Below are positions 1,205 to 54,745 of a stretch of 64,000 nucleotides of DNA, in pieces. Numbering within the stretch: the first letter of the stretch is position 1; the number at the start of each line of letters is the position of its first letter. A program made the translations under genes and the position numbers. This DNA comes from an uncultured Prevotellaceae bacterium. Lineage in GTDB: Bacteria; Bacteroidota; Bacteroidia; Bacteroidales; Bacteroidaceae. The DNA is taken from assembly GCA_946626595.1 (NCBI GenBank), contig CAMOUQ010000001.1, positions 65,846-129,845 of the forward strand, given 5' to 3'. The notes beneath the pieces are model-generated. The model worked only from the letters and a program-made list of their open reading frames with translations. It was not told where the DNA came from and ran no database searches.

Positions 1205-3844
1205 TTATACCGGATCGACGTCGTAGACAATCTGGGCCGAGCGATAGGGCTTCTGCCGGAGGAGGAAGTCGCGCACCTGGCGCAGGCGCCGACGGGCATC
1301 TGCCATGGAGGCCTCGACCTCGACCTTGAGGATGAGCCGACGGATGTAGAGCAACTGGACGCGCGAGACGGCTGGCGTGTCGGGGCCGAGCACACGCTGT
1401 CCAAACTGCCGGCGCAGCAGGGCACCCATGTCGCGGGCCAACTGGTCGACGACGCGCACGTCGCGGTGGCGCAGGGTGACCTCCACCAGGCGCACAAAGG
1501 GCGGATAGTGGAAGGCTTCGCGCTCCTCGAGCTGGTCGCGGTAGAGCCCGGCATAGTCGTTCGTGACGACCTGACGCACGACACTGAGGTCGGGCGACTT
1601 GGTCTGCAGGATGACCAGTCCCTGCCTGTTGCGCCTACCGGCTCGGCCTGCCACCTGGGAGAGCATCTGGAAAGCGTGTTCGTAGCTGCGGAAGTCGGGC
1701 ATGTTGAGCATGGTGTCGGCATTCAGTATGCCTACGACACTGACTCGCTCGAAGTCGAGGCCCTTGGTCACCATCTGGGTGCCGACAAGGATGTCGGTGT
1801 GGCCGTGCTGGAAGTCGAAGAGCAGACGTTCGTAGGCGGTGCGGCTGCGTGTGGTGTCAAGGTCCATGCGAGCCACCCGGGCCTGGGGAAAGAGCTGGGA
1901 GAGTTCTTCCTGTATGCGCTCGGTGCCGTAGCCCACGCCAACGAGTTCGTGGCCTTCGCACTGGGGGCAGCGCTCGGGGATGGGATAGGTGGCACCGCAG
2001 TAGTGACACGTCATGCGTCCGCTTTGTCGGTGGAGGGTGAGCGTGACGTCGCACTGGGTGCAGCGGGGATTCCATCCACAGGTCTGGCACTCCATCTGCG
2101 GGGCATAGCCACGGCGGTTTTGGAAAAGGATAATCTGCTCGCGGCGCTCCAGGGCCTCGCGCATGGCCCGGATGAGGTCGGTGGAGAAGGGGCCGTGCAT
2201 TTCCTTGCGGTGACGGCGGTCGCGGAGGTCGACCACCTCGATGCGGGGCAGCTGCACCTGACCGAAACGCTCCGACAGTGTCACCAGGGCATATCGGCCC
2301 TGCTGGGCGTTGTAGAAGCTCTCGAGGGAGGGCGTAGCCGTACCCAGAAGGGCCTTGGCCCCTACCCTACGGGCCAGGACGAGGGCGACGTTGCGGGCAT
2401 GATAGCGAGGGGCAGGGTCTTGCTGCTTGAAGGAATTTTCGTGTTCCTCGTCCACAATGACCATCCCCAACCTGCGGAAGGGCAGGAAGACACTGCTGCG
2501 CACGCCGACGATGATGTCATAAGGCTCCGCGGAGAGTTGTTTCTGCCAGACCTCAACCCGCTCGGCATCGGGATACTTGGAATGGTAGACGCCGAGCCGC
2601 TCTCCGAAGACACGGCGCAGACGCTCTACCAACTGGGCCGTGAGCACAATCTCGGGCAGCAGGTAGAGCACCTGATGGCCTTGGGCTATCTGGTCCTGGA
2701 TGAGGCGGATGTATATCTCGGTCTTGCCACTGCTGGTGACTCCGTGCAGGAGGCAGATGTCCTGGGTGGCGAAGGCGGTACATATTTCGTCGTAGGCACG
2801 CTGTTGGGCAGTGGAAAAAGCGCTCCCCATCCCAATCCCTCCCCGAGGGGAGGGCGTAGACTCTTCCGTCCCCATAATACGGGACACTTCGCGTTCGTAC
2901 ACCTCCAGCACACCACGCTCGCGCAGACCTTTCAGGGCCGCCTCGCTCTGTCCCTCCATGAGGACGGACTTCTGCAGTTCGACCAGGAGTTGGCGGTTCT
3001 GCAGTGTGAGGGCCGCGGAGGCCTTGGAGAGGTCGAGATAACGCAGCAGGAGGTCGGACTGGCGGGGTGCGCGGCGCAACTCGTCGAAGAGTTGGTTGAG
3101 ACGGTCCTGTGAAAAAAAGGCCTCGGTGAGACGTACGCAGTGGACGATGCGTGGACGGTAGTTCTGCCTCAACTGTTCGTGCATCATCAGTGCCCCCTTC
3201 TCAAGCAGGCTCTTTACGACGGGCAGGACGTTGAGGGACTTCTTGGACGGGCCAAGCGCTTCGCGAATCCCTTGTACCATTTGTGAGGCATCGAGGGCCT
3301 TCTGGAGGTCCTGGACGCGCTGTTCGCGCAGGCGTTCCATGAGGTCGAGCACGTACTGCTCGTTGCGTGTGAATGTCACATCGCTGTCGTAGTCGGGATT
3401 ATATTCCACCAGACTCTCGCTCTCCAACTTCAGTCCGCTGGGCAGCGCGGCCCTGTAGACCTCGCCCAGGGTGCACAGGTAGTAGTCGGCTATCCAATGC
3501 CAGAGCCACAATTGTTCGGGCAACAGCACAGGGGCCGGGTCGAGGACGTCGAGGACAGACTTGAAGACCCCCTCCGACTCCCCCGTGAGGGGGAGAGATT
3601 TGCCACCCCATCCCTCCGACTCCCCCGTGAGGGGGAGAGATTTGACTCCAAATCCTTCCGACTCCCCGTGTACTTTTACCACTATGGCGGAGTAAATCTT
3701 CTTGGCACCAAAGGGGACAATGACTCGACAGCCCACCCGAACGCGGTCTTGCAAGGATTCGGGCAGGCTGTAGGTATAGGTTTCGGCCAGGGGGAGGGGC
3801 AGAACGACGTCTGCTAAAAGAGATAAGCGAAGCGGATGTTCCAT
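1205..3844 (-). CDS. priA: primosomal protein N' / replication restart helicase PriA
   Basis: 879 aa. Walker A GVTSSGKTEIY and DExH-type VIVDEEHE are present. Cys-rich zinc region: CQTCGWNPRCTQCDVTLTLH...CHYCG...CPQC. The C-terminal helicase lobe contains ILVGTQMVTKGLDF and QVAGRAGR. Confidence 0.95.
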   Translation of the reverse strand: MEHPLRLSLLADVVLPLPLAETYTYSLPESLQDRVRVGCRVIVPFGAKKIYSAIVVKVHGESEGFGVKSLPLTGESEGWGGKSLPLTGESEGVFKSVLDVLDPAPVLLPEQLWLWHWIADYYLCTLGEVYRAALPSGLKLESESLVEYNPDYDSDVTFTRNEQYVLDLMERLREQRVQDLQKALDASQMVQGIREALGPSKKSLNVLPVVKSLLEKGALMMHEQLRQNYRPRIVHCVRLTEAFFSQDRLNQLFDELRRAPRQSDLLLRYLDLSKASAALTLQNRQLLVELQKSVLMEGQSEAALKGLRERGVLEVYEREVSRIMGTEESTPSPRGGIGMGSAFSTAQQRAYDEICTAFATQDICLLHGVTSSGKTEIYIRLIQDQIAQGHQVLYLLPEIVLTAQLVERLRRVFGERLGVYHSKYPDAERVEVWQKQLSAEPYDIIVGVRSSVFLPFRRLGMVIVDEEHENSFKQQDPAPRYHARNVALVLARRVGAKALLGTATPSLESFYNAQQGRYALVTLSERFGQVQLPRIEVVDLRDRRHRKEMHGPFSTDLIRAMREALERREQIILFQNRRGYAPQMECQTCGWNPRCTQCDVTLTLHRQSGRMTCHYCGATYPIPERCPQCEGHELVGVGYGTERIQEELSQLFPQARVARMDLDTTRSRTAYERLLFDFQHGHTDILVGTQMVTKGLDFERVSVVGILNADTMLNMPDFRSYEHAFQMLSQVAGRAGRRNRQGLVILQTKSPDLSVVRQVVTNDYAGLYRDQLEEREAFHYPPFVRLVEVTLRHRDVRVVDQLARDMGALLRRQFGQRVLGPDTPAVSRVQLLYIRRLILKVEVEASMADARRRLRQVRDFLLRQKPYRSAQIVYDVDPV
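2837..2854. repeat. 18-bp perfect palindrome inside priA coding sequence
   Basis: ccctccccgaggggaggg, preceded by ccccatccc. It encodes part of STPSPRGGIGMGS in the linker before the helicase Walker A. Confidence 0.85.
3570..3670. repeat. 42-bp in-frame tandem repeat (2.4 copies) inside priA, each unit carrying a hairpin
   Basis: Units start at 3570 and 3612, with a partial unit at 3654. The core is ccctccgactcccccgtgagggggagagatttg. The hairpin ctccccc-gtga-gggggag lies at 3578-3595 and 3620-3637. The protein repeat is GESEG(F/W)G(V/G)KSLPLT. Confidence 0.9.
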
Positions 3845-4464
3845 GTTTGTCCCTGCAGATTGACATTGTTCACCTCGCCCATCTTGCCCAGCGGAATGTT
3901 GTAGTTGAAGGCAAACTGGACATGCTTGGCCACCTCGAAGCCCGCACCGATGTTCCAGTCGAAGAAGGAGTGCTCGAGTTTGCCTATGGAACCTATCTCC
4001 TTCTTATCGAGCAACCAGTTCCACTGCGGACCGGTGAATATCATCAGTCCGAAGGCCGGCACGATGTTCCAGGTATAGCGCAGATTGACGGGGACGACAA
4101 ACATGTGCAACTTCTTGTCCTTGAAGACGCTCTGCTCCTGATATTCCAGTTTGCTCTGGTTGTAGAGCAGGGCTCCGTCCAGACTCAGGTTGGGCATGGG
4201 AATCTTCACTTTGACCTTCGCTCCCAGGAACCATCCCGTATGGTTCTCGGACGAGAACAGTTCGCGGCTGGCAGAGAAGCGACTAAGGTCGAGACCGCCC
4301 TCTACGCCCAGACTCCAGGGTTTCACCTTTGGCGTTGGGGCCGGAACAGGCGATTGGGCATGAAGAGAGAGAATGAGAAAATGAGAGAATGAGAAAATGA
4401 GAAGGTTAAGCGGCTGCGGCAGCCACTTTCCAAAATATCGTCTATGTGCCATAATCTTTTTCAT
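3814..4464 (-). CDS. small outer-membrane beta-barrel protein (porin-family / PorT-like fold; function unknown)
   Basis: 216 aa with a signal peptide ending LHA/QSP. It shows an alternating beta-strand pattern and a C-terminal aromatic signature NIRFAYLF. It lies directly downstream of porN and overlaps the priA start by 31 nt. Confidence 0.75.
   Translation of the reverse strand: MKKIMAHRRYFGKWLPQPLNLLIFSFSHFLILSLHAQSPVPAPTPKVKPWSLGVEGGLDLSRFSASRELFSSENHTGWFLGAKVKVKIPMPNLSLDGALLYNQSKLEYQEQSVFKDKKLHMFVVPVNLRYTWNIVPAFGLMIFTGPQWNWLLDKKEIGSIGKLEHSFFDWNIGAGFEVAKHVQFAFNYNIPLGKMGEVNNVNLQGQTWNIRFAYLF
4363..4405 (+). repeat. (ATGAGARA)n 8-nt-period repeat, plus-strand orientation, inside the OMP signal-peptide coding region
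   Basis: gagaATGagaaaATGagagaATGagaaaATGagaagg, with ATGs at 4373, 4381, 4389 and 4397. Read on the minus strand it encodes LIFSFSHFLILSL. Confidence 0.9.
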
Positions 4465-4512
4465 TTTCTCATTCTCTCATTCTCTCATTTTCTCATTCTC
4501 CCTCACCTTCTC
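4461..4512 (-). repeat. (ATGAGARA)n repeat in mRNA-sense orientation bridging the porN stop to the OMP start
   Basis: Minus-strand ATGs lie at 4496, 4488, 4480, 4472 and 4464 with exact 8-nt spacing. The block is an inverted repeat of 4363-4405. Confidence 0.9.
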
Positions 4513-5604: not shown

Positions 5605-7158
5605 TCAATTCACAATCACTTCCATTGCGCTGTTCAGCGTACGTTCGATTCCGTCAGGACCGACGGCGCGGACATGGGTGATGTAGAAGCGTTTGCCGCG
5701 GTTCAGCTGGCGTATCATGTTCTTCTGGCGCAGGGTGAACTCGCTGTTCTGTGAAATTTCGGGCACGGCGTTACCCATGTTGTCGTAGAAGACCATCTCG
5801 AAACCCTTCACCGAGAAGGGGATGTTCAGCAGTCCGTCGTCGATGGCAGCGCCAAGGTTGGTCATGGCCATGAGGTTCTGCTTCGATATCTTGCCGCCCA
5901 GCAAGTGGTCGGTGCCGATGGGGATGTATGCCGTCGGGTCGGGCAACTTGCGCACACGGAAGGTGAACTTGCCCATCTCCTGCACACGGCCTTCGGTCTG
6001 TGCGGCAACGGTCACCACGGCCTCGCCACCCACGTTGGTGGGTCGGGCAATGTACTTGCCGTCGCCCTTCTGCGTGAACGAACCGCCAGTCATGGACACC
6101 TGCAGTCGGTTGCTGGGGATGCCGGGGACGCTGACGCTCATGGGGTTGTCGTAACCAGCGTACAGGACATTCATGATGTCGGCACTGACAGTGGCCGAGG
6201 GCGGAATGACGGTGTACTTCTGCTGGAAGTCGCGACGCACCTTCTCACCGCTACCGTTCAGGGTTTCTATCCAACCCGTCAGGGTGAAGTCGCCCGTCGT
6301 GTTGCAAATGGTCTCATAGAGTCCGTTGCTGCCCTTGATTTCACGGCCGCCCACATAGATGGTGGGACGGTTGGTGGTGTCGACGGCAGCCATGAATATC
6401 TGAGCCGAGAAACGTCCGCCCTGGACGATGGTCTGGGCATTGGGCACCACGTAGGCATTTACCTCGTTGACGCGGATGTCCTTGACGTCGATGTTGCTCA
6501 CCAGGCCGTGCAGCACTTCGCCCTCGGCGTGGCGCACGTCGTTCTGCAACTTGGTCAGGAGGGTGACGGCAGCCGAGGTCGGCATGCTTTCAAACATATA
6601 CTCCTGCCAGTTCTTGCCTTCTATCTTTCCTTTCTGGGGCACCTCGGTGTTCAGGTTGCTCTCGATGATTCGGCGCTGCCCCTTGTCGGTGACCATCTTT
6701 GTGATGCGGTCCCGATAGTTGTTGATGGCATCGTAGAGGTCGCGGCCACGTCCCCGGTTGGGGGCCAGCATGACGCTGCTGGCAGCCTCCAGGTCCTCCT
6801 GGTTGCGGATATTATGGACGTCGCCATTCTTGCCATCGCTCTTCTTGACGATGGCCACCTTCAGTTCCTCGGCCAGGTTGTACAGCGAGTCGCTTATCTG
6901 ACGGACATACTGGGCCTTGTCGTACCACTGCTTGACCTTGGTGGGGTTGGCCTTCATCTGCTCTTCGAAGTTCTTGTAGATACCCTCGTTGGTCTGAATG
7001 GCATTCTGCGTAGCCAGCTCGATGCCGTCGGACACGATGGTGAAACCCTTCAGCACGTCGCTGCTGACATTCAGGGCCAGCATGGCCATCAGCACGACGT
7101 ACATCAGATTTATCATCTTCTGACGCGGAGAGACTTTCTTTTTCTTTATTTGAGCCAT
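5605..7158 (-). CDS. porM: T9SS motor/periplasmic shaft protein PorM/GldM
   Basis: 517 aa. The N-terminus PRQKMINLMYVVLMAMLALNVSSDVL is the conserved GldM TM segment. Confidence 0.92.
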   Translation of the reverse strand: MAQIKKKKVSPRQKMINLMYVVLMAMLALNVSSDVLKGFTIVSDGIELATQNAIQTNEGIYKNFEEQMKANPTKVKQWYDKAQYVRQISDSLYNLAEELKVAIVKKSDGKNGDVHNIRNQEDLEAASSVMLAPNRGRGRDLYDAINNYRDRITKMVTDKGQRRIIESNLNTEVPQKGKIEGKNWQEYMFESMPTSAAVTLLTKLQNDVRHAEGEVLHGLVSNIDVKDIRVNEVNAYVVPNAQTIVQGGRFSAQIFMAAVDTTNRPTIYVGGREIKGSNGLYETICNTTGDFTLTGWIETLNGSGEKVRRDFQQKYTVIPPSATVSADIMNVLYAGYDNPMSVSVPGIPSNRLQVSMTGGSFTQKGDGKYIARPTNVGGEAVVTVAAQTEGRVQEMGKFTFRVRKLPDPTAYIPIGTDHLLGGKISKQNLMAMTNLGAAIDDGLLNIPFSVKGFEMVFYDNMGNAVPEISQNSEFTLRQKNMIRQLNRGKRFYITHVRAVGPDGIERTLNSAMEVIVN

Positions 7159-7170
7159 TTGTTTCTTTTT

Positions 7171-7227
7171 TTAGGGTTGCCTAGGATTGCCTGGGATTAC
7201 CTAGGAATGCATAGGAATGCCTAGGAC
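7171..7227. repeat. 10-bp tandem repeat x ~6 in the porL-porM junction
   Basis: ttagggttgc/ctaggattgc/ctgggattac/ctaggaatgc/ataggaatgc/ctaggac. The last unit contains the porL stop codon (TAG, 7221-7223). Confidence 0.9.
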
Positions 7228-9710: not shown

Positions 9711-10651
9711 TACAACAGTCTCACGCTCTTGTGCAGGTTCTTTCCCTTCTTGAAGAGGTTCAGGTCGGTCTGATACCCAATCACGATTTCGTGCGTGCCG
9801 TGCAGCACTCCGATGCCTCCCGTATATGCTTCGTAGGCATAACCTATCTGCACACCGTGGAAGTTGGTTCCGACCAGGACACCGGCACTCACCGTCGGAC
9901 TGTACGACAGACCTGCATAGATGCGAAACTTCTCGCCGTTGTAGGCCATGCGTGCCGTTATGTCGCCGCGCCAGGCCTGGAAGTCTGTGCGCAGGATGCC
10001 CGTGGTGTAGAGCACGAATTCGGGATTTCGGAACCGGATGTTATAGCCACCCGTCAGGTAATAGAGCCTGTTCACCTTCATCTCATTCACCTTATCGTCG
10101 CCCAACTTCACGGTCGGGGCCGTCAGGTGCATCGAACTCAGACCGGCGTACCACAGTTGTTTGTAAGTGTATCGCAGGCCGAAATCCACGTCCAGGGCCA
10201 TGCCGTCCACCTGACTTGATGCGAATGCCGGGTCGCTGGGATCCCTGACATCGAGTTTCGAACCGTCGAAGGTTGCGTTCAGGAAGCCCACGCGGGCTCC
10301 TACGCTCAGGCGACCACCCCACAGCGGCTGGTGGAAGGCATATTGGAGGTACATCTTTTTATTGGAGAAGAGACCAATCTTGTCATTCATGAATCCCACG
10401 CCAGCGCCATGTCGCGGACTCAGGAAGAAGAGTGGCAGGTCGGCAGTGGCCAACATGGTCTGTGGAGCCTGATCGAATCCCACCATCTGCATGCTGAAGG
10501 CACCCTGTACATTGAGTTGCCCATCCAGACCGCTCGAGGCGGGGTTGAAGTAGGACTGCAGCGCCCAATAGTTAGCGAACGCTGCATCATACTGTGCACA
10601 GACAGGCAACGCCGCCAGCACGCCCACGACCAACCACAATAGTCTTTTCAT
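9710..10651 (-). CDS. porP: T9SS membrane protein PorP/SprF family
   Basis: 313 aa with a signal peptide ending CAQ. It has the family-typical start QYDAAFANYWALQSYFNPASSG and a beta-barrel-like repeat pattern. It is the first gene of the porPKLMN block. Confidence 0.85.
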   Translation of the reverse strand: MKRLLWLVVGVLAALPVCAQYDAAFANYWALQSYFNPASSGLDGQLNVQGAFSMQMVGFDQAPQTMLATADLPLFFLSPRHGAGVGFMNDKIGLFSNKKMYLQYAFHQPLWGGRLSVGARVGFLNATFDGSKLDVRDPSDPAFASSQVDGMALDVDFGLRYTYKQLWYAGLSSMHLTAPTVKLGDDKVNEMKVNRLYYLTGGYNIRFRNPEFVLYTTGILRTDFQAWRGDITARMAYNGEKFRIYAGLSYSPTVSAGVLVGTNFHGVQIGYAYEAYTGGIGVLHGTHEIVIGYQTDLNLFKKGKNLHKSVRLL

Positions 10652-26723: not shown

Positions 26724-26772
26724 GATGAACGAACTCTCTTGTATTATCAAGAATTAGAGAATGAGAGAATTA

Positions 26773-31800: not shown

Positions 31801-32692
31801 CGGCAAATTCGACCAGTTCTCCACCTGGAACGGCCACTTCAACCTGGCCTATCACCCCGCCATGGCCAACGTACCCGCCACACTGACACTGCAGGCCCCC
31901 GAGGGGTACCTGATCAAGGGCTATTCGCTGCTTGCTGCCAAGGCCTACAGCGCTGCCCACACCTACACCCTGGAGGCTGAGGACGGCACCACCATCACGC
32001 CGAAGTTTGCAAGTTCGGCTGCCGACTTCACAGAACTGAGCCAGACGGACATCTATGCCAAGACGGCCACAATCTCTGTCACGACTACAGATGTCTCCAA
32101 ATTCTTGGCCATTGCCGACTTCGTGGTAGAACTGACACAGGAGTACCCGCTGGCTCTCCATGCCATCGGTGATGCCTCCTACGGCACGCTTTATCTGCCC
32201 TTCGGCATCACACTGCCCAACAACGTTACGGCCTACAAGGTAGCCGTGAACGGCGAGTGGGTCATCCCGACATCGATGGGCCAGGAACTGCCCAAGGAGA
32301 CGCCCGCTCTGCTCTATTCGGCAGAAGGCGCGACGACGGCCCAGGCCACCATCAACGACAAGGCCACGGCCGACGCATCGGGCAACCAGCTGCAGGGCGT
32401 GCTCACGAAGCAGCACGTCGACGGCTACGTGCTGAATCAAAAGGACCAGGAGATTGGATTCTTCCGTCTGAGCAGCACCGGCGAACTGGACGCCTACCGC
32501 GCCTACCTGCCTGCCAATGTCGGAGAGGTGAAAGGCTTCATCCTGAACTGGAGCACCGATGGGATTGAGAAAATGAGAGATGGAGAAAATGAGGAAATGA
32601 GAAGTGCCATCTTCGACCTTAGCGGTCGGCGCGTGACTAAGGCACGGAAGGGCATCTACATCATGAATGGGAATAAGGTGATTGTTGAATAA
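28811..32692 (+). CDS. multidomain exo-alpha-sialidase (GH33) with N-terminal lectin-like domains, C-terminal accessory module and T9SS sorting tail
   Basis: 1293 aa. RIP motif: RVYRIPALV. Asp-boxes: STDGGKTW, SDDNGATW, STDDGDTW and SLNGGEDW. Tyr/Glu region: YVTLTKLQNGNLGMLFED. Tail: AIFDLSGRRVTKARKGIYIMNGNKVIVE. Confidence 0.88.
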   Translation: MKNKTLLLTLLAMIIGIAAKADTGWKVTAGSQVTTEAALVSGKPYLVYYVGSGNPGYMKDTGTSYNAQSDPTPDLTAVYTFTDNGDGTWSVQNHKTFNYWGTPTANATTYFGSTTAGAWALNFQANGNIAPSCNGHSLNRSSGKIHPWSTGTAASNQFKIENVTIEEVEVDMNIVTNRTPLSAAPSGDGWYVISVKSGTYAGHTVYVPESEIEYQANRNYPLSFSKVDGQPTIDNTVYYTHIAKTANGYAWQLPNGRYLRAYNKFFPVSTEETVENVSITYSAGNGMQFIHSGYKAIPYYLGSKYFIGETNGTGGFFDVYPIDLAEARLTAWRVIIPSAGADTRLACTRDDVKGLTSVYNGGYFFLPAGVTPTTADFALVGMLNCIVDAEAQTITVEYDPTLAILPDGVSVAQGYQTAGRDSEVMLLSIVAKPFRNATGASFGISLKDGAEALISKLTLYEASNESPEIMSTGSGAPTKTVLAEVTNPQAATDMAIGNLTAGNHYYWLAATVKGDAPVGNILDAAVTSLTYTCYGAQTTLDLTDAGDPADRGAMVFETRSYPFLPRDNGSRVYRIPALVTADDGSLVAAVDKRYDSFRDIGGGHVIDIVVRRSTDGGKTWGDPVVVAKGLGTADDAKCGYGDPSLTKGKDGRLYLLFAAGNTGYFYGLNRICMSTSDDNGATWTTPVDLYETGRITDHASSFGSTPCYGLYDYFVTSGKGLYTHDGVLMYLLPAQPYTNAEKTEKTNNSHDFVFYSTDDGDTWHISETPAFVGGDEAKLEQADDGSLIASVRQSNQRGFNTGTYVKNDDGTVTFTWDQQYNTSQLTAGGYPNNQDILYYSRATDLTGADTGEPDILLHTMTTGQHANLNLFMSLNGGEDWKLVCQIQPKGVRYVTLTKLQNGNLGMLFEDQGLNEAGGYTDYNHYPINFLTITREQLLAWYDEAKPWFEEQELEGKFVKIVQGLTGHTTYGTLSGDTWTSKKHTGNKIEGLTLTKSDGKFDQFSTWNGHFNLAYHPAMANVPATLTLQAPEGYLIKGYSLLAAKAYSAAHTYTLEAEDGTTITPKFASSAADFTELSQTDIYAKTATISVTTTDVSKFLAIADFVVELTQEYPLALHAIGDASYGTLYLPFGITLPNNVTAYKVAVNGEWVIPTSMGQELPKETPALLYSAEGATTAQATINDKATADASGNQLQGVLTKQHVDGYVLNQKDQEIGFFRLSSTGELDAYRAYLPANVGEVKGFILNWSTDGIEKMRDGENEEMRSAIFDLSGRRVTKARKGIYIMNGNKVIVE
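32141..32692 (+). repeat. copy 1 of a ~0.56-kb near-identical C-terminal module shared by the two sialidase genes
   Basis: By eye it aligns to 38972-39547 at roughly 85-90% nucleotide identity, far above the rest of the two genes. Confidence 0.85.
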
Positions 32693-38900: not shown

Positions 38901-39547
38901 CCTTCTCCAACAGCAACACTGCAAACACCACTTATGCCTTCATCACCCACTTTGTGGTGAAACTCACGAAGCAGTACCCACTGGCCCTCCATGCAATCGG
39001 CGATGCCTCCTACGGCACGCTTTATCTGCCTTTCGGCATCACACTGCCCAACAACGTTACGGCCTACAAGGTTGCCGTGAACGGCAATTGGGCTATCCCG
39101 ACATCGATGGGACAGGAACTGCCCAAGGAGACGCCGGCCCTGCTCTATTCTGCAGAAGGCGCGACAACGGCCTTAGCCACCGTCAACGACGCAGCCACGG
39201 CCGACGCATCGGACAACCAGTTGCAGGGCGTGCTCACGAAACAGCACATTGATGGCTATGTGCTGAACCAGGACGGCAATGATGTCGGATTCTTCCGACT
39301 GAGCGGTAGCGGTGAACTGGACGCCAACCGTGCCTACCTGCCTGCCAATGCTGGAGAGGTAAAAGGCTTCATCCTGAACTGGGACACCGACGGGATTGAG
39401 AAAATGAGAAGTGGAGAAAATGAGAAAATGAGAAATGGAGAAAATGAGAGAATGAGAAATGCCATCTTCGACCTCAGCGGTCGGCGCGTGAACAAGCCTC
39501 AAAAGGGCATTTACATCATGAATGGGAATAAGGTGATTGTTGAATAA
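32960..39547 (+). CDS. 2195-aa fusion: GH20 beta-N-acetylhexosaminidase + lectin-like/beta-sandwich domains + GH33 sialidase + shared C-terminal module + T9SS tail
   Basis: GH20 motifs: HWHLTDNQGFRFESKTYPQL, IIPEIDMPGHS and LHIGCDE. GH33 motifs: IYYRIPTML. Asp-boxes: STDGGLTW, SSDGGATW, SDDKGQTW and SFDQGQTW. Also YSSLQKLPNGDLAIIYED. Tail: AIFDLSGRRVNKPQKGIYIMNGNKVIVE. Confidence 0.88.
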   Translation: MKTKKLLILVALIATTCCAFADNAVSMLLPKPHELSENAATFDLTRNVSITDPTNSTLLASLFTTGGSPSATVTVSLVSDATLGTFDYTLAGFPNEGYKLEVTTDAITIQAVTKTGVIRAAQTLMQLAAANGGTSIPGVSITDWAAFKLRGYMHDVGRSFVSFDELKKEVDLLSRFKVNVFHWHLTDNQGFRFESKTYPQLNQATNMTRFAGQYYTQAQCTELEAYAAERGMIIIPEIDMPGHSQAFQTAMGFAMNSEQGKPVLKALLDELAAAFPLAPYLHIGCDEAGTTAAFVNEMSQYVKETLGRRVLVWNPISGVSISKANLPYIDMTEMWGTAGKKIDGLPNIDCRYNYINHFDVFADLVGIYKSNIYYTDKGNAEVAGAISGLWNDRKTPTETDIIRQNNLWANAIATAERGWMGGGKQYIETGGTTLPNSGSEFEEFADWERRFLYYKGTWLKDESIPYVKQTNIRWRITQPFPNGGTATAAFPPEESTADVLPDEYTYDGQTYTTSMATGGGIYLRHVWGTIVPAFFSSPQLNTTAYAWTYVYSPTAQTAGALIEFQNYSRSENDKAPDNGNWDRKGSRIWVNGSEVAPPTWGNAGKSINSEVDLQNENFTARKPIAISLKAGWNKIFLKLPYVSASNVRLNKWMFTFVLTDAEGKNALEGITYSPIQSLDANIDDVVTIIGDIKTYVHSKCGTAVGLYPESAATDLLASVATVEATLQSTLTADEREAQVANLQSAFETFKSNLATAAINQPLASTASETHYYTLCTPQRGSRYVTSSGAGAELGGTPTLVATSYWKFVARADGAWDIVNAYDDSYIAPNSTNNTALTASVTSPSAGWKISKASTDGQVIITSGNCQFNQTNTSSSVLSGGYRLFNWGNGTNTTDTGCQYAIEEVDEADIPYSFSFKPSDATVYTLNNTSSANRGALVYDGSSTNVSLVASANLDATNPNHQWVLYPTGTVGQYYLYNVGARKFAIPTAIAQSDKNAWVFSDNAVAVSLNSETVGTYRIKMAKDPVSGTNEAVLGVNRNLNPAVFNYNDAGSDFTITLVKGADQSAAVKAAVSKLISSQKPLTSYPQSSGWYAIQIKSKNGAAAYAGRFMQAAASLYNGLYPLIFTGAIDLQPAISEPTFLTYIDHTSWDVNTWQLPDGRYLVKNASNKFPTLSLTPGNVLCGYDNGNYFKTEGDWFADPYNSGANYFFGETTSMRTAYTVYPIDLDAAGLAPWQVTITNGSASTLLTCKRSDVKGQTAVYSGGYFFLPSDVTPKATDFAMEGMIGSPVIDAENKTISVQYDPSVSLLPDGIDIIQGNETTGKGNATSALLRMKVTPFATTTPTEVSITLSGSDQISKVAVYATDIDELHAKAASPVKLGEATVSGQSALSITMDNPTTIAVGTSAYLWVTADVKADATELATIDAAITSLTYTNDYIKANALEANVLDLTAKGNPDGQMCIYKQQTALWTPDHANGIYYRIPTMLCTDDGNIVALADYRHDHPYDLGKNASNGLGAHVIDVVARRSTDGGLTWQDETVVAAGDGKNANTWGFGDPAIVADADGTLHCLMAAGSTSYASGSGMLAMGYSKSSDGGATWTAVKDIYDDIDKGGLTIASAFTSGGKGVTFANGRMAFAFLGKVGGTTNVYPIYSDDKGQTWHIQPTVAYGGGDESKFEIMNDGSLLLSVRKGGYNGTALRAYNRTTGDASGEGIGSWGTAANWGSEMNANGCNADILYYNRSTDNPNRPDVILHTLTKSYSTYRKDLRLYASFDQGQTWKEAFQLQPGYAAYSSLQKLPNGDLAIIYEDGSIGNKDQQDCYAMNYIVLSSEALNARIDELYKESLYTTASIITQGETNTNAPFVTWTPSSGWATSFTTNATSGLAGVTVSATSQAFNRQGGYDQRVLLFRPTAAGASDVYTITAPDGYIIDGYTIGGYFGTSTQTYTLTAEDGTSVAINKNKAQQNPPTYLTISGLNKKSTTITFSNSNTANTTYAFITHFVVKLTKQYPLALHAIGDASYGTLYLPFGITLPNNVTAYKVAVNGNWAIPTSMGQELPKETPALLYSAEGATTALATVNDAATADASDNQLQGVLTKQHIDGYVLNQDGNDVGFFRLSGSGELDANRAYLPANAGEVKGFILNWDTDGIEKMRSGENEKMRNGENERMRNAIFDLSGRRVNKPQKGIYIMNGNKVIVE
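38972..39547 (+). repeat. copy 2 of the shared C-terminal module
   Basis: See 32141-32692. It differs by a 24-nt (three 8-nt units) expansion of the GAGAAAAT repeat. Confidence 0.85.
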
Positions 39548-39596
39548 TGAATGGTTCTACCGAGTCATACTATATTCTTACACACTTGTATAATTA

Positions 39597-39644
39597 AACC
39601 TGAAAGGGATGTGCCGCTCGGCACATCCCTTTCAGGTTTTTTTT
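39597..39644. terminator. bidirectional rho-independent terminator
   Basis: 20-bp stem aacctgaaagggatgtgccg / cggcacatccctttcaggtt, followed by T8. It lies between convergent genes. Confidence 0.85.
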
Positions 39645-39656
39645 GTATCTTAACGT

Positions 39657-40070
39657 TCAGCGTTTCTTTTTGTTGAAGTGGTCGATACCACGACGGACAT
39701 TCTCGATGAGTGCTTCCGACGAATAGGTAGCCCCCGTCACGACGTCCACCTCCTGCTTGGCAGCCTCCTTGACGGAAAGTCCCTTCCATTTGTCGAGCAG
39801 GGCACGCTTCACATGGGCAAAATACTTAGGCGTCTCCATATTGGGAAGAGCCTCAATGCGTTCAATCTTGTTCTTCTTGATATAAATCTTCACCGGAGTG
39901 GTACCGGCATACCCTTCGACATCGGCAGCCAGAGTGGTGGTATTCACCACGGTCATACCGTTTTCCTTTGTCACGACCTGCTCAGCAGGCTTCATACTCG
40001 TCATCAGCGTTGCCAGAGCCAGGATGGCAGATACTTTGCAAATATTCTTCTTTTTCATAATTTTCTTCAT
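39657..40070 (-). CDS. FMN-binding domain protein (exported)
   Basis: 137 aa with a signal/lipoprotein-like N-terminus. FMN_bind signature: VDVVTGATYSSEAL (Thr for flavinylation). Confidence 0.8.
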   Translation of the reverse strand: MKKIMKKKNICKVSAILALATLMTSMKPAEQVVTKENGMTVVNTTTLAADVEGYAGTTPVKIYIKKNKIERIEALPNMETPKYFAHVKRALLDKWKGLSVKEAAKQEVDVVTGATYSSEALIENVRRGIDHFNKKKR

Positions 40071-40117
40071 TCTCTCATTTTCTCATTTTCTCATTCTCTC
40101 ATTTTCTCATTCTCTCA
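40071..40117 (-). repeat. (ATGAGARA)n repeat bridging the AKR stop to the FMN-binding gene start
   Basis: Minus-strand ATGs lie at 40110, 40102, 40094, 40086, 40078 and 40070 with exact 8-nt spacing. The AKR stop TGA (40117-40115) lies within the array. Confidence 0.9.
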
Positions 40118-41521
40118 CCTTCTCACCTTCCTTGTCAATTCCACCAGACGACTCATCTGGTTAGGGATACGTATCAACTGCGGGCACTTACTCAGACATT
40201 CGCCACAATCCTGACAGCGATTGGCACGCTTTTCCAGGGGGATGGCCTTCTGGTAAGCCTCAACGTAGGCCTTCTGCCGCTCGGCATAGTCGGGTGCCGT
40301 ACTTTCGGGCAGGGGCAGCACCTTGTCGGTAACGGCCTGGTTGTAGAACGCAAAGTTGCCCGGGATGTCCACCCCATAGGGGCAAGGCATGCAGTAGGCA
40401 CACGTGGTGCAACCGATGGTGGGGAATCCGGCCATCTGGTCGGCGATACGTGCCAGGAGTTCGTTTTCCTTCGCCGTACAAGGTTCCAGGGGCGAGAAGG
40501 TGGCAACGTTGTCCTCCATGTGATCCATGCGGTTCATGCCACTGAGCACCGTGAGCACATTCTCGTGCGAACCCACCCAGCGGAATCCCCATCGGGCTGG
40601 TGAATCGTCGGGACGTACGGCACGCAACTGGCTGTTGATGTCCTCGGCCACATTGGCAAGGCCACCACCGCGTATGGGCTCCATGATGACGGCCTGTATG
40701 CCCAGTTTCTCAAGTCTGTTGTAGAGGTACTCGGCATCGGCATCGCCGCCACGGCGCTTTCCGCCTCGGGCATGGCGCCAGTCGAGGTAATTCATCTGTA
40801 TCTGCACGAAGTCCCAATGGTACTTATCGTTGTGGTCGAGCAGATAGTCGAAGGCAGAAACATCGCCATGATAGGAGAATCCCAGATGGCGTATGCGCCC
40901 GGCTTCGCGCTCCTTCAGCAGGAAATCGAGCATGCCATTGTCGAAGAAACGGTTGCGCAGGTTGTCCACCCCTCCCCCGCCAATGGCGTGTAGGAGATAG
41001 TAGTCGATATAGTCGACCCGCAGTTTGCGGAACGAACTCTCGTACATTGCCTTCGATTTCTCGAAGGGCCACGTCTGCGGGTTCTGGTTCGACAACTTTG
41101 TGGCCACGTAGTATTTCTCACGCGGATAACGGCTCAGCGTCCGTCCCGTCACTTCCTCGTTGTGCCCACCGCCATACATGGGGGCCGTGTCGAAGTAGTT
41201 CACACCGTGTGCAATGGCATAGTCCACCAGCCGGTCCACTTCTTCCTGTTCGCGCGGCAGCCGCATCATGCCGAAGCCCAGCAGCGAAATCTTCTCGCCC
41301 GACCCGTTCTGGGTGCGGTATGTCATGGCTACGGATTCGGGAGCCGCCTCTTTCTTCGCCTTCTTTTCCTCAAAGGGGGAAGCCATGGCACCAAAGGGTT
41401 CTGCCAGCATCAGTGCGGCAGCCGAAAAGGAGCCTAAGCCCACCCGCTTCAGAAAGGAACGGCGATTCATGTCCTGTTGTTTGTTGTCTTGCATATTATA
41501 TTCGCAATTAAAGTTTCCCAT
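40115..41521 (-). CDS. aldo/keto reductase fused to a C-terminal 4Fe-4S domain, with Tat-type signal
   Basis: Twin-arginine signal: NRRSFLKRVGLGSFSAAALMLA. AKR core: GVNYFDTAPMYGGGHNEE...YLLH. Cys clusters: CTTCAYCMPCP and CQDCGECLSKCP. The start could instead be the ATG at 41494. Confidence 0.87.
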   Translation of the reverse strand: MGNFNCEYNMQDNKQQDMNRRSFLKRVGLGSFSAAALMLAEPFGAMASPFEEKKAKKEAAPESVAMTYRTQNGSGEKISLLGFGMMRLPREQEEVDRLVDYAIAHGVNYFDTAPMYGGGHNEEVTGRTLSRYPREKYYVATKLSNQNPQTWPFEKSKAMYESSFRKLRVDYIDYYLLHAIGGGGVDNLRNRFFDNGMLDFLLKEREAGRIRHLGFSYHGDVSAFDYLLDHNDKYHWDFVQIQMNYLDWRHARGGKRRGGDADAEYLYNRLEKLGIQAVIMEPIRGGGLANVAEDINSQLRAVRPDDSPARWGFRWVGSHENVLTVLSGMNRMDHMEDNVATFSPLEPCTAKENELLARIADQMAGFPTIGCTTCAYCMPCPYGVDIPGNFAFYNQAVTDKVLPLPESTAPDYAERQKAYVEAYQKAIPLEKRANRCQDCGECLSKCPQLIRIPNQMSRLVELTRKVRR

Positions 41522-50169: not shown

Positions 50170-50256
50170 AGACCATGAATTACACGAATTTTACGAATTA
50201 GCCAGCCAATTGTCGCCGGAACTTATAATTCGTAAAATTCGTGTAATTCGTGGTCT
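50170..50256. terminator. 31-bp-arm hairpin (30/31) with 25-nt loop built from AATTCGT-type repeats, between convergent genes
   Basis: Arms agaccatgaattacacgaattttacgaatta / taattcgtaaaattcgtgtaattcgtggtct. Confidence 0.6.
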
Positions 50257-50304
50257 GGTATATTCGAGTAATTCGTGGTCTGGTATATTCGAGTAATTCG
50301 TGGT
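50245..50304. repeat. 25-bp tandem repeat, 2.4 copies
   Basis: aattcgtggtctggtatattcgagt occurs twice identically (50245 and 50270), with a partial third copy. It abuts the stop codon of the esterase-dockerin gene. Confidence 0.9.
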
Positions 50305-54710: not shown

Positions 54711-54745
54711 TAATTCTTAATTCTTAACTCTTCATTCTTAATTTG
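54711..54745. repeat. 7-bp tandem repeat x5 (TAATTCT family) at the EamA-DUF3256 junction
   Basis: taattct taattct taactct tcattct taatttg. It contains the EamA stop codon (54738-54740). Confidence 0.85.

Follow-up and report, generated by a model that had tools for sequence, protein, structure and literature searches.

A tandem array of the octanucleotide ATGAGARA fills the junction between two genes in an uncultured Prevotellaceae bacterium (assembly GCA_946626595.1, contig CAMOUQ010000001.1, positions 65,846–129,845; this stretch of 64,000 nucleotides (nt) is hereafter called the window). The upstream gene encodes an aldo-keto reductase (AKR) with an iron–sulfur domain and the downstream gene encodes a small secreted FMN-binding protein (FMN_bind). 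The array is probably a slippage-driven repeat that is tolerated at a junction where translation initiates independently of Shine-Dalgarno (SD) sequences. The family to which it belongs, (ATGAGARA)n, is a family of hypermutable simple sequence repeats (SSRs) widespread in Bacteroidota. The array forms a chain of overlapping stop and start codons; no sign of selection for translational coupling was found, and coupling itself would be possible judging from the sequence.

The array consists of 8 units located on the minus strand at 40063–40126 (period 8 and 8.1 copies according to Tandem Repeats Finder, TRF). Read from 40126 to 40063, these units are GTGAGAAG GTGAGAGA ATGAGAAA ATGAGAGA ATGAGAAA ATGAGAAA ATGAGAGA ATGAAGAA; the middle five are ATGAGARA and the outer ones are the variants GTGAGAAG, GTGAGAGA and ATGAAGAA. 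A search of the window for runs of three units, tolerating at most 2 mismatches, gave 15 matches for 0.00 expected from 100 shuffles. The AKR gene (40115–41521, minus strand; Pfam domains Aldo_ket_red and Fer4) encodes a protein with a twin-arginine-like N-terminus and a C-terminal 4Fe-4S dicluster domain. It ends with GTG-AGA-AGG-TGA (TGA at 40117–40115), the last three codons and the stop being repeat units. Five three-codon mini-open reading frames (mini-ORFs) start at the ATGs 40110, 40102, 40094, 40086 and 40078, and the TGA of each overlaps the following ATG. The final TGA overlaps the ATG at 40070, which is in frame with the FMN_bind gene (39657–40070, minus strand; identified by Pfam, with a signal peptide). 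A sixth mini-ORF, initiated by the GTG at 40118, overlaps the AKR stop. The six mini-ORFs cover 40067–40118 and read, in order, VRE, MRK, MRE, MRK, MRK and MRE, and every unit boundary at this junction is an AUGA or GUGA overlap. An earlier note on this DNA, made from its letters, had described the AKR stop, the five ATG-initiated mini-ORFs and an array that supplies the upstream stop codon, the spacer and the downstream in-frame ATG; all of this is confirmed. So is its remark that the junction between gldN and the gene of an outer membrane protein (OMP), at 4500–4461, looks the same, both upstream genes ending with AGA-AGG-TGA and both downstream products beginning with MKKIM.

The ORF that starts at 40070 reads MKKIMKKKN..., and this ATG is part of the last, degenerate repeat unit. 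As five other species have orthologues whose first residue matches the second methionine here (40058, MKKK...), the prefix MKKI corresponds to the last degenerate unit. The ATG at 40070 may be nothing more than an in-frame last unit, and the conserved ATG at 40058 is probably the true start of FMN_bind. The two genes form an adjacent pair that is conserved across species; they lie on the same strand, separated by 44 nt, and would be co-transcribed. An internal promoter was considered and rejected, as no Bacteroidetes -7 motif (TAnnTTTG) was found between them and a single weak sigma-70-like match is present. The RNA of the array is unstructured (z = -0.08) and has no local pairing partner, which led to the rejection of a local RNA structure at this junction. 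No Rfam 15 family matches the window at gathering score, the sole match near the array being a chance snoRNA (E = 0.38). The array provides a purine-rich leader with an A at -3. An SD-like role of the GGTGA variant units was also rejected, as the ribosomes of Bacteroidia are blind to SD sequences (PMC7797042).

The relay of stop and start codons is automatic because the unit begins with ATGA and is 8 nt long (2 modulo 3). From the ATG of unit n it is 9 nt, or three codons in frame, to the TGA of unit n+1; this TGA also overlaps the ATG of unit n+1, whatever the copy number. The TGAs of the array fall in all three frames, and any ORF that enters it terminates within three units. As the properties of the observed chain follow from the repeat, they do not need a separate explanation. 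The start codon overlapping the TGA is intact in 0.87 of the units of junction or start arrays, versus 0.92 and 0.93 in two classes of antisense arrays (see below). The motif thus shows no extra conservation at junctions relative to antisense arrays, where a relay is impossible.

The array varies extensively between strains. Nineteen contigs from rumen metagenomes encode an FMN_bind protein that is 98–100% identical, and the junction is readable in 18 of them. These junctions include 5, 8, 9, 10, 11, 12 or 16 units in at least 10 distinct orders. The gap from the AKR stop to the ATG is 20, 44, 52, 60, 68, 76 or 108 nt, all differences being multiples of 8. One further contig, retrieved by a metagenome scan for the start of the FMN gene, carries a known 9-unit allele. 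In all 18 alleles, both ORFs are intact and the last unit is in frame with the FMN gene. Only their ends vary: the first units of a strain decide whether AKR terminates with KVRR* or KVRK*, and the N-terminus of FMN_bind has the variants MMIIM and MRKIM. The array does not behave as a phase-variable contingency locus of the on/off type: no change in copy number shifts either frame in the 18 alleles and no promoter motif flanks the array. The chain itself is intact in 15 of 18 alleles. In the three others, one mini-ORF is lengthened (allele ATGGGAGA, contig L118), one is fused to the FMN gene as an N-terminal extension (allele AAGAGAAA, L127) or the chain is broken (allele ATAAGAAG, L129). The contig L127 also contains an N-gap, with the array duplicated on both sides of it. 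Two short contigs, L114 and L115, have only 143 nt upstream of FMN_bind and end inside the 3' end of the AKR gene, just past the array.

The same strains offer a comparison with a copy of the repeat that is translated. About 600 nt from the junction array and in inverted orientation, a copy that encodes the linker EKMRSGENEKMRNGENERMRN (39397–39461, plus strand) lies in frame in the gene of a 2195-aa glycosidase/sialidase secreted by the type IX secretion system (T9SS), before the C-terminal sorting domain. There, the positions that would be in-frame TGAs are TGG, and the length of the linker differs among strains only by 24 nt (8 aa, 'GENEKMRN'). Steps of 8 nt at the junction versus 24 nt within a frame are the expected signature of slippage filtered by frame selection. 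The array has the properties of an SSR or variable-number tandem repeat: tandem excess over chance, whole-unit copy differences, non-conservation in relatives and, in the translated copy, triplet constraint.

The orthologous junctions of other species do not share the array. In the closest sister species (82% identity of FMN_bind), AKR ends with KKRN* and is followed by a plain 26-nt spacer, AATAACGTAATCCATAAGTAATAAAT, then ATGAAGAAAAGA, without any array. A species with 74% identity has a 4-nt spacer, AGATGAGACTATGAAGAA, that looks like two proto-units. In a species with 69% identity, an unrelated 50-nt spacer is followed by 4–5 units (ATGGGARA/ATGAGARA) that abut the start only, and its contigs differ by 8 nt (84- versus 92-nt spacer); the sequence indicates that this array arose independently at the FMN start. 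The spacers of a species with 65% identity (148 nt) and of the species represented by P0029 (70 nt; FMN_bind 78% identical over 82% of the query) are unrelated. The array at the AKR–FMN junction is thus absent from the 82% sister species and from three further species among the five compared. The overlap geometry is not conserved among the orthologous pairs either, their spacers being 4, 26, 70, 84–92 and 148 nt long. Comparison of filled and empty sites did not reveal any target-site duplication, terminal inverted repeat or non-repeat cargo, the units merely replacing the spacer; these sites thus bear no marks of a transposable element or a miniature inverted-repeat transposable element. The earlier note had proposed either a mobile or expandable module or a selected coupling device. 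Expandability is well founded (5 to 16 units in conspecific strains) but mobility is not, as filled and empty sites lack marks of transposition. Selection for coupling finds no backing, given that the geometry is automatic, the sister species lacks the array, disturbed alleles circulate in three contigs and the motif shows no extra conservation.

The earlier note had taken the two junctions as independent instances. At the gldN–OMP junction (site 1), the sense array (4461–4500, minus strand) links the stop of gldN, the units and the ATG of the OMP beta-barrel gene (3814–4464; Pfam). However, both sites of the window carry the otherwise rare, species-specific unit variant GTGAGAAG, and the sequences indicate two loci of a single evolving family rather than separate inventions. 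Site 1 also includes an antisense arm (4367–4403, minus strand) that reads (TYTCTCAT)n on the mRNA and encodes the core of the OMP signal peptide, LLIFSFSHFLILSL. The sense array and the antisense arm pair in a long hairpin (-88.7 kcal/mol, z = -9.6). In strain L138 (20–300), both arms have expanded together (-134.5 kcal/mol, z = -14.8), and the rare variant GGTGAGAAG is mirrored by CTTCTCACC in the opposite arm. The array and the hairpin are kept in the sister species (rumen metagenome-assembled genome (MAG) RGIG3567; L139 1415–1600; -78.1 kcal/mol, z = -7.4), but its OMP start codon lies 21 nt past the array, in the loop of the hairpin. Whether the start codon occupies the stem or the loop differs between species; what is conserved at site 1 is the inverted pair, not the stop-to-start chain. 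A more distant species has a different upstream repeat and CAATTGTCAATTG in the signal peptide. OMP orthologues of other Prevotellaceae (P0124, P0128, P0131 and P0134) have repeat-like signal-peptide cores, IVNCQLSI and FNFQLSI, encoded by CAATTG-type short repeats (including L145 1501–1600). Repeat-encoded leader peptides are thus not restricted to the octamer.

The distribution of the family was examined by scanning one genome per GTDB species for (ATGAGARA)3, i.e. three perfect units, which gave at least 113 loci. The following counts are those among the matches listed, and they describe a sample in which genes were called approximately, from ORFs. Bacteroidota labels are found on 106 of the 113 loci and include Prevotella and other Bacteroidales, Flavobacterium, Saprospiraceae, Chitinophagales, Cytophagales, Prolixibacteraceae and Pedobacter. 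These loci contain 121 arrays, which were classified by their ORF context. Ten of them have the complete stop-array-start arrangement, with the start on the in-register last unit. Four have a start on the last unit without an abutting upstream gene, four have an upstream stop at the array and an out-of-register start, and 23 abut only the stop of an upstream gene. The antisense arrays comprise 28 that encode an N-terminal hydrophobic stretch after MKR... (signal-peptide core) and nine that lie at most 20 nt upstream of a start. The context of the remaining 43 is unclassified. The relay geometry is therefore real and recurrent but is a minority outcome among arrays. The 10 of 121 arrays that have it lie beside real genes in other Bacteroidota genomes. 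The earlier note also held that arrays placed randomly relative to start and stop codons, or out of register with the downstream ATG, would speak against its reading; this is partly the case, since most arrays among the matches listed do not end on a start codon.

The reality of the genes was checked with Pfam on samples. Codon-position G/C skew and amino-acid log-odds had been tried to tell coding from shadow ORFs and were dropped, as they misclassified known genes of the window. All of the 10 sampled upstream genes are real (including LpxB, NDH-2, RodA, GH9 and an ABC transporter), as are nine of the 10 sampled downstream genes whose start codon the last unit provides (among them HisA, a TonB-dependent receptor, a LolA-like protein and TauE). 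In ambiguous cases, the antisense gene is real in five of five (OEP, peptidase M28 and DUF5119 lipoproteins, TonB receptor). Read on the opposite strand, the repeat becomes (TYTCTCAT)n, which has no stop in any frame and codes for FLIFSFSH. The antisense signal peptides are exemplified by MKRTIFLIFSFSHFLIFLTSC, with a lipoprotein box, and by MKRTVLLIFSFSHFLISGFA/QQ; arrays of this class are found at loci including L011, L019, L021, L037, L039, L060, L065, L072, L075, L084, L091 and L107, in addition to 4367–4403 of the window. A non-triplet repeat located in a leader peptide could give phase variation.

TRF analysis of the 113 listed loci together with the window (~0.97 Mb) yielded 126 arrays of the octamer family and ~187 other arrays (period 5–12, at least 3.5 copies). 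The latter have mostly periods of 7 and 8, periods 6 and 9 being rare. Tandem repeats with units of 7 and 8 nt, from many sequence families, are unusually abundant in these Bacteroidota genomes. Three loci of Prevotella sp. RUI080 (L051, L098 and L099) carry short arrays, TTTAGAAA/TTGAGAAA plus 3–5 ATGAGAAA, beside a conserved GC-rich hairpin, TTCCCTGCCGGACGCGCTTTCGACAGGGAA, with several copies per contig, which suggests that array and hairpin form a composite dispersed repeat. A scan of viral contigs for the array gave three matches, two of them in giant-virus MAGs.

SD pairing plays no part for the ribosomes of Bacteroidia, which initiate preferentially on A-rich, unstructured leaders carrying an A at -3 (PMC6847099, PMC7797042). 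Combined with the data presented above, the following model can be drawn for the junction array. A gene boundary where a TGA stop lies a few bases from an ATG-AAR-AAR (Met-Lys-Lys) start of a signal peptide would be the likely seed. Replication slippage would then add or remove whole 8-nt units. However many units were present, the entering ORF would stop, the AUG–UGA mini-ORFs would persist and the last AUG would stay in frame, so that the junction would absorb unlimited changes in copy number without damage to either gene. This built-in geometry means that the relay needs no selection to arise or to persist. The array would be tolerated because the ribosomes ignore SD sequences and prefer unstructured A-rich leaders. 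Both bacteria and archaea are known to reinitiate after termination where genes overlap by ATGA, and overlapping gene pairs of Bacteroidetes lack SD motifs (PMC6728339); ribosomes could thus pass along the mini-ORFs.

It could be argued that this passage is precisely what the array is kept for. Ribosomes leaving AKR would hop from one mini-ORF to the next by termination–reinitiation, and this would fix the ratio of AKR to FMN-binding protein. The overlap of each stop with the following start, the established reinitiation at ATGA overlaps and the lack of SD motifs in overlapping pairs of Bacteroidetes (PMC6728339), the adjacency of the two genes across species, the chain intact in 15 of 18 alleles and the recurrence of the geometry beside real genes in other genomes agree with this view. 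A selected relay nevertheless seems unlikely. Serial reinitiation should shed ribosomes at each step and a device setting stoichiometry should not tolerate a range of 5 to 16 units within one species. Furthermore, neither the 82% sister species nor three others have the array, the chain is disturbed in three alleles (the break in L129, the fusion in L127 and the lengthening in L118), the ATGA motif is not better conserved at junctions, and the geometry, which any ATGA-initial 8-mer would produce, concerns only 8% of the sampled arrays among the matches listed. Alternatively, the array could be a contingency-type locus in which the number of units grades the translation of the FMN-binding protein, generating heritable and reversible diversity in the rumen population. 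The extreme diversity of alleles among near-identical strains, the location of the repeat in a translation initiation region, the graded control exerted by 7-nt repeats of a 5' untranslated region (UTR) in Haemophilus (PMC12721329) and the fact that the genes encode periplasmic redox proteins lend this proposal slightly more credit than the relay. It remains doubtful: neutral slippage predicts equal diversity, length changes never shift either frame and hence provide no on/off switch, and arrays also occur without a downstream gene (the 23 stop-only arrays among the matches listed).

Two other proposals involve the second site or the neighbouring copy, and both have less in their favour. The array and its flanks, GAGAAGGTGAG ... 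ATGAARAARATTATG, might be a cassette copied between the gldN–OMP and AKR–FMN junctions by transposition or ectopic recombination. Both sites have these flanks and the rare GTGAGAAG unit, and a 1.5-kb metagenome contig, L128 (JGI 3300031760, 1550 nt), runs from the 3' end of gldN through the array to the FMN_bind gene. However, these 'flanks' are themselves degenerate repeat units, filled and empty sites lack target-site duplications, terminal inverted repeats and cargo, site 1 of the sister species already has the array with different flanks, and another species acquired an array of its own at the orthologous FMN start. As for L128, it is most simply viewed as an assembly chimera, probably formed through a shared repeat longer than the k-mer. 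Such copying therefore appears quite improbable. Least credible of all is a partnership between the junction array and the T9SS copy at 39397–39461, which together would make up a long-range inverted repeat, in RNA or in DNA, and control or flip the 600-bp segment with the FMN_bind gene. The two arrays are indeed inverted and ~600 nt apart, and at site 1 the inverted pair folds into a hairpin of very high stability, which the strains and the sister species retain. At the AKR–FMN junction, however, the array RNA finds nothing to pair with locally, coding constraint acts on the T9SS copy, and a strong terminator, a 20-bp hairpin (39596–39639), lies between the convergent FMN_bind and T9SS genes and separates the junction array from the inverted copy. 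No inverted arrangement of this segment was found in the 19 strain contigs.

Several observations weigh against a merely tolerated slippage product. Among the matches listed, where a same-strand gene comes directly after an array, its start codon belongs to the last unit, in register, 14 times out of 18, and 18 times out of 26 with looser limits; in-register starts fit the seeding of arrays from start codons but fit equally well selection for the overlap. The census is itself a sample of arrays with three perfect units, based on approximate ORF-based calls and including 43 unclassified arrays. In addition, AUG is normally depleted near the start codons of Bacteroidetes (PMC6847099), and one would not expect a leader filled with AUGs if its built-in stops did not neutralise these; this neutralisation could itself be a selected property. 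Finally, slippage alone is insufficient to explain that the same octamer recurs across classes of the phylum. A more far-reaching proposal is that the octamer is an evolvability module specific to Bacteroidota and usable thanks to their SD-less translation. Sense arrays would serve ribosomes as self-correcting landing pads and couple the genes as spacers, and their copy number would act as a heritable and reversible translational rheostat by setting the ratio of the downstream to the upstream protein; in antisense orientation, the octamer would provide secreted proteins with length-variable signal-peptide cores and 5' hairpins. This proposal is speculative and rather unlikely.

Literature searches using the exact sequence and octamer repeats in Prevotella or Bacteroides did not retrieve any paper describing the ATGAGARA octamer, but several known systems share some of its features. 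Long SSRs with units of 5–11 nt are known in prokaryotes (Mrazek, Guo & Shah 2007, as summarised in PMC4679880). According to this summary, they resemble the junction array in being head-to-tail repeats of short units in excess of chance that differ by whole units between close relatives; like the octamer, those with non-triplet units are found outside reading frames or are triplet-constrained, and they are patchily distributed across taxa. Compared with the SSRs as summarised, the octamer family differs by a unit that holds both a start and a stop codon, by its concentration in one phylum and by three coding-related uses (junction, in-frame linker and antisense signal peptide). In Beggiatoaceae, Cyanobacteria and a few Bacteroidetes, direct repeats of the heptamer TAACTGA precede start codons, and a role in translational regulation was proposed for them (MacGregor 2015, PMC4679880). 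Like the junction array, they are intergenic and stop-containing, lie directly upstream of SD-less starts, vary among strains by indels the size of a unit and do not occur in the orthologous spacers of close relatives (PMC4679880). In contrast, the 8-nt ATGAGARA has its own ATG, which generates mini-ORFs and can supply the start codon, and its taxonomic range is different.

The boundary of each unit is AUGA, the commonest overlap among the coupled genes (ATGA or TGATG) studied by Huber et al. 2019, and the overlapping pairs of Bacteroidetes are SD-free (PMC6728339). Known cases are, however, single conserved overlaps between real genes (PMC6728339), whereas the array is a polymorphic chain of three-codon ORFs. 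The CTCTT repeats of the Neisseria opa genes are similar to the antisense (TYTCTCAT)n arrays, both being pyrimidine-rich, non-triplet and encoding the hydrophobic core of a leader peptide (PMC3960869). This likeness, which concerns the composition and position of the repeat and not frameshift 'off' alleles, holds for the 28 antisense arrays and not for the AKR–FMN junction array. The heptanucleotide repeats of hmw1A and hmw2A in Haemophilus influenzae are, like the array, intergenic and variable in copy number between isolates, and there they can grade downstream expression (PMC12721329). Unlike the array, they operate through transcription and RNase III processing of the 5' UTR, in an organism that uses SD sequences and without any chain of mini-ORFs (PMC12721329).

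If the array is indeed such a tolerated repeat, this accounts for a conspicuous pattern that would otherwise lead annotation astray, and it has practical consequences. Gene callers choose different starts and predict an FMN-binding protein of either 133 or 137 aa, and assemblers break or mis-join contigs at the arrays. The junction array is also a sensitive strain marker for Prevotella-like bacteria of the rumen. More generally, one 8-nt repeat that is common across Bacteroidota serves as a junction spacer, as an in-frame linker and, on the opposite strand, as a signal-peptide core. Should copy number indeed tune translation without SD recognition, a major phylum of the gut and rumen would have a simple, new way of generating heritable variation in expression.

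Within the window, the octamer family is found at six places. Besides those described above, a second T9SS linker copy, EKMRDGENEEMRS (32563–32603, plus strand), also lies in frame before a C-terminal sorting domain; both linker copies read EKMR(S/N/D)GENE..., a charged linker (EKMRNGEN)n, and have TGG where in-frame TGAs would fall. TRF and the unit search also identified an intergenic remnant of 2–3 units (26750–26770, plus strand). In the gld operon (gldK–N cluster, minus strand), every junction bears a different small repeat between stop and start: (GAATTAA)n at 9711–9669, a CCTAGGCAAT-like 10-mer at 7226–7172, a TGTAAAT-like 7-mer at 5616–5580 and the octamer at 4500–4461. Another minus-strand junction carries (AGAATTA)n at 54711–54743. 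Two longer tandem repeats are unrelated to the octamer: an intergenic one of 2.7 copies of 25 nt (50237–50304) and one of 2.3 copies of 42 nt with a GC-rich palindrome (3570–3667), located in or near the 5' region of priA.

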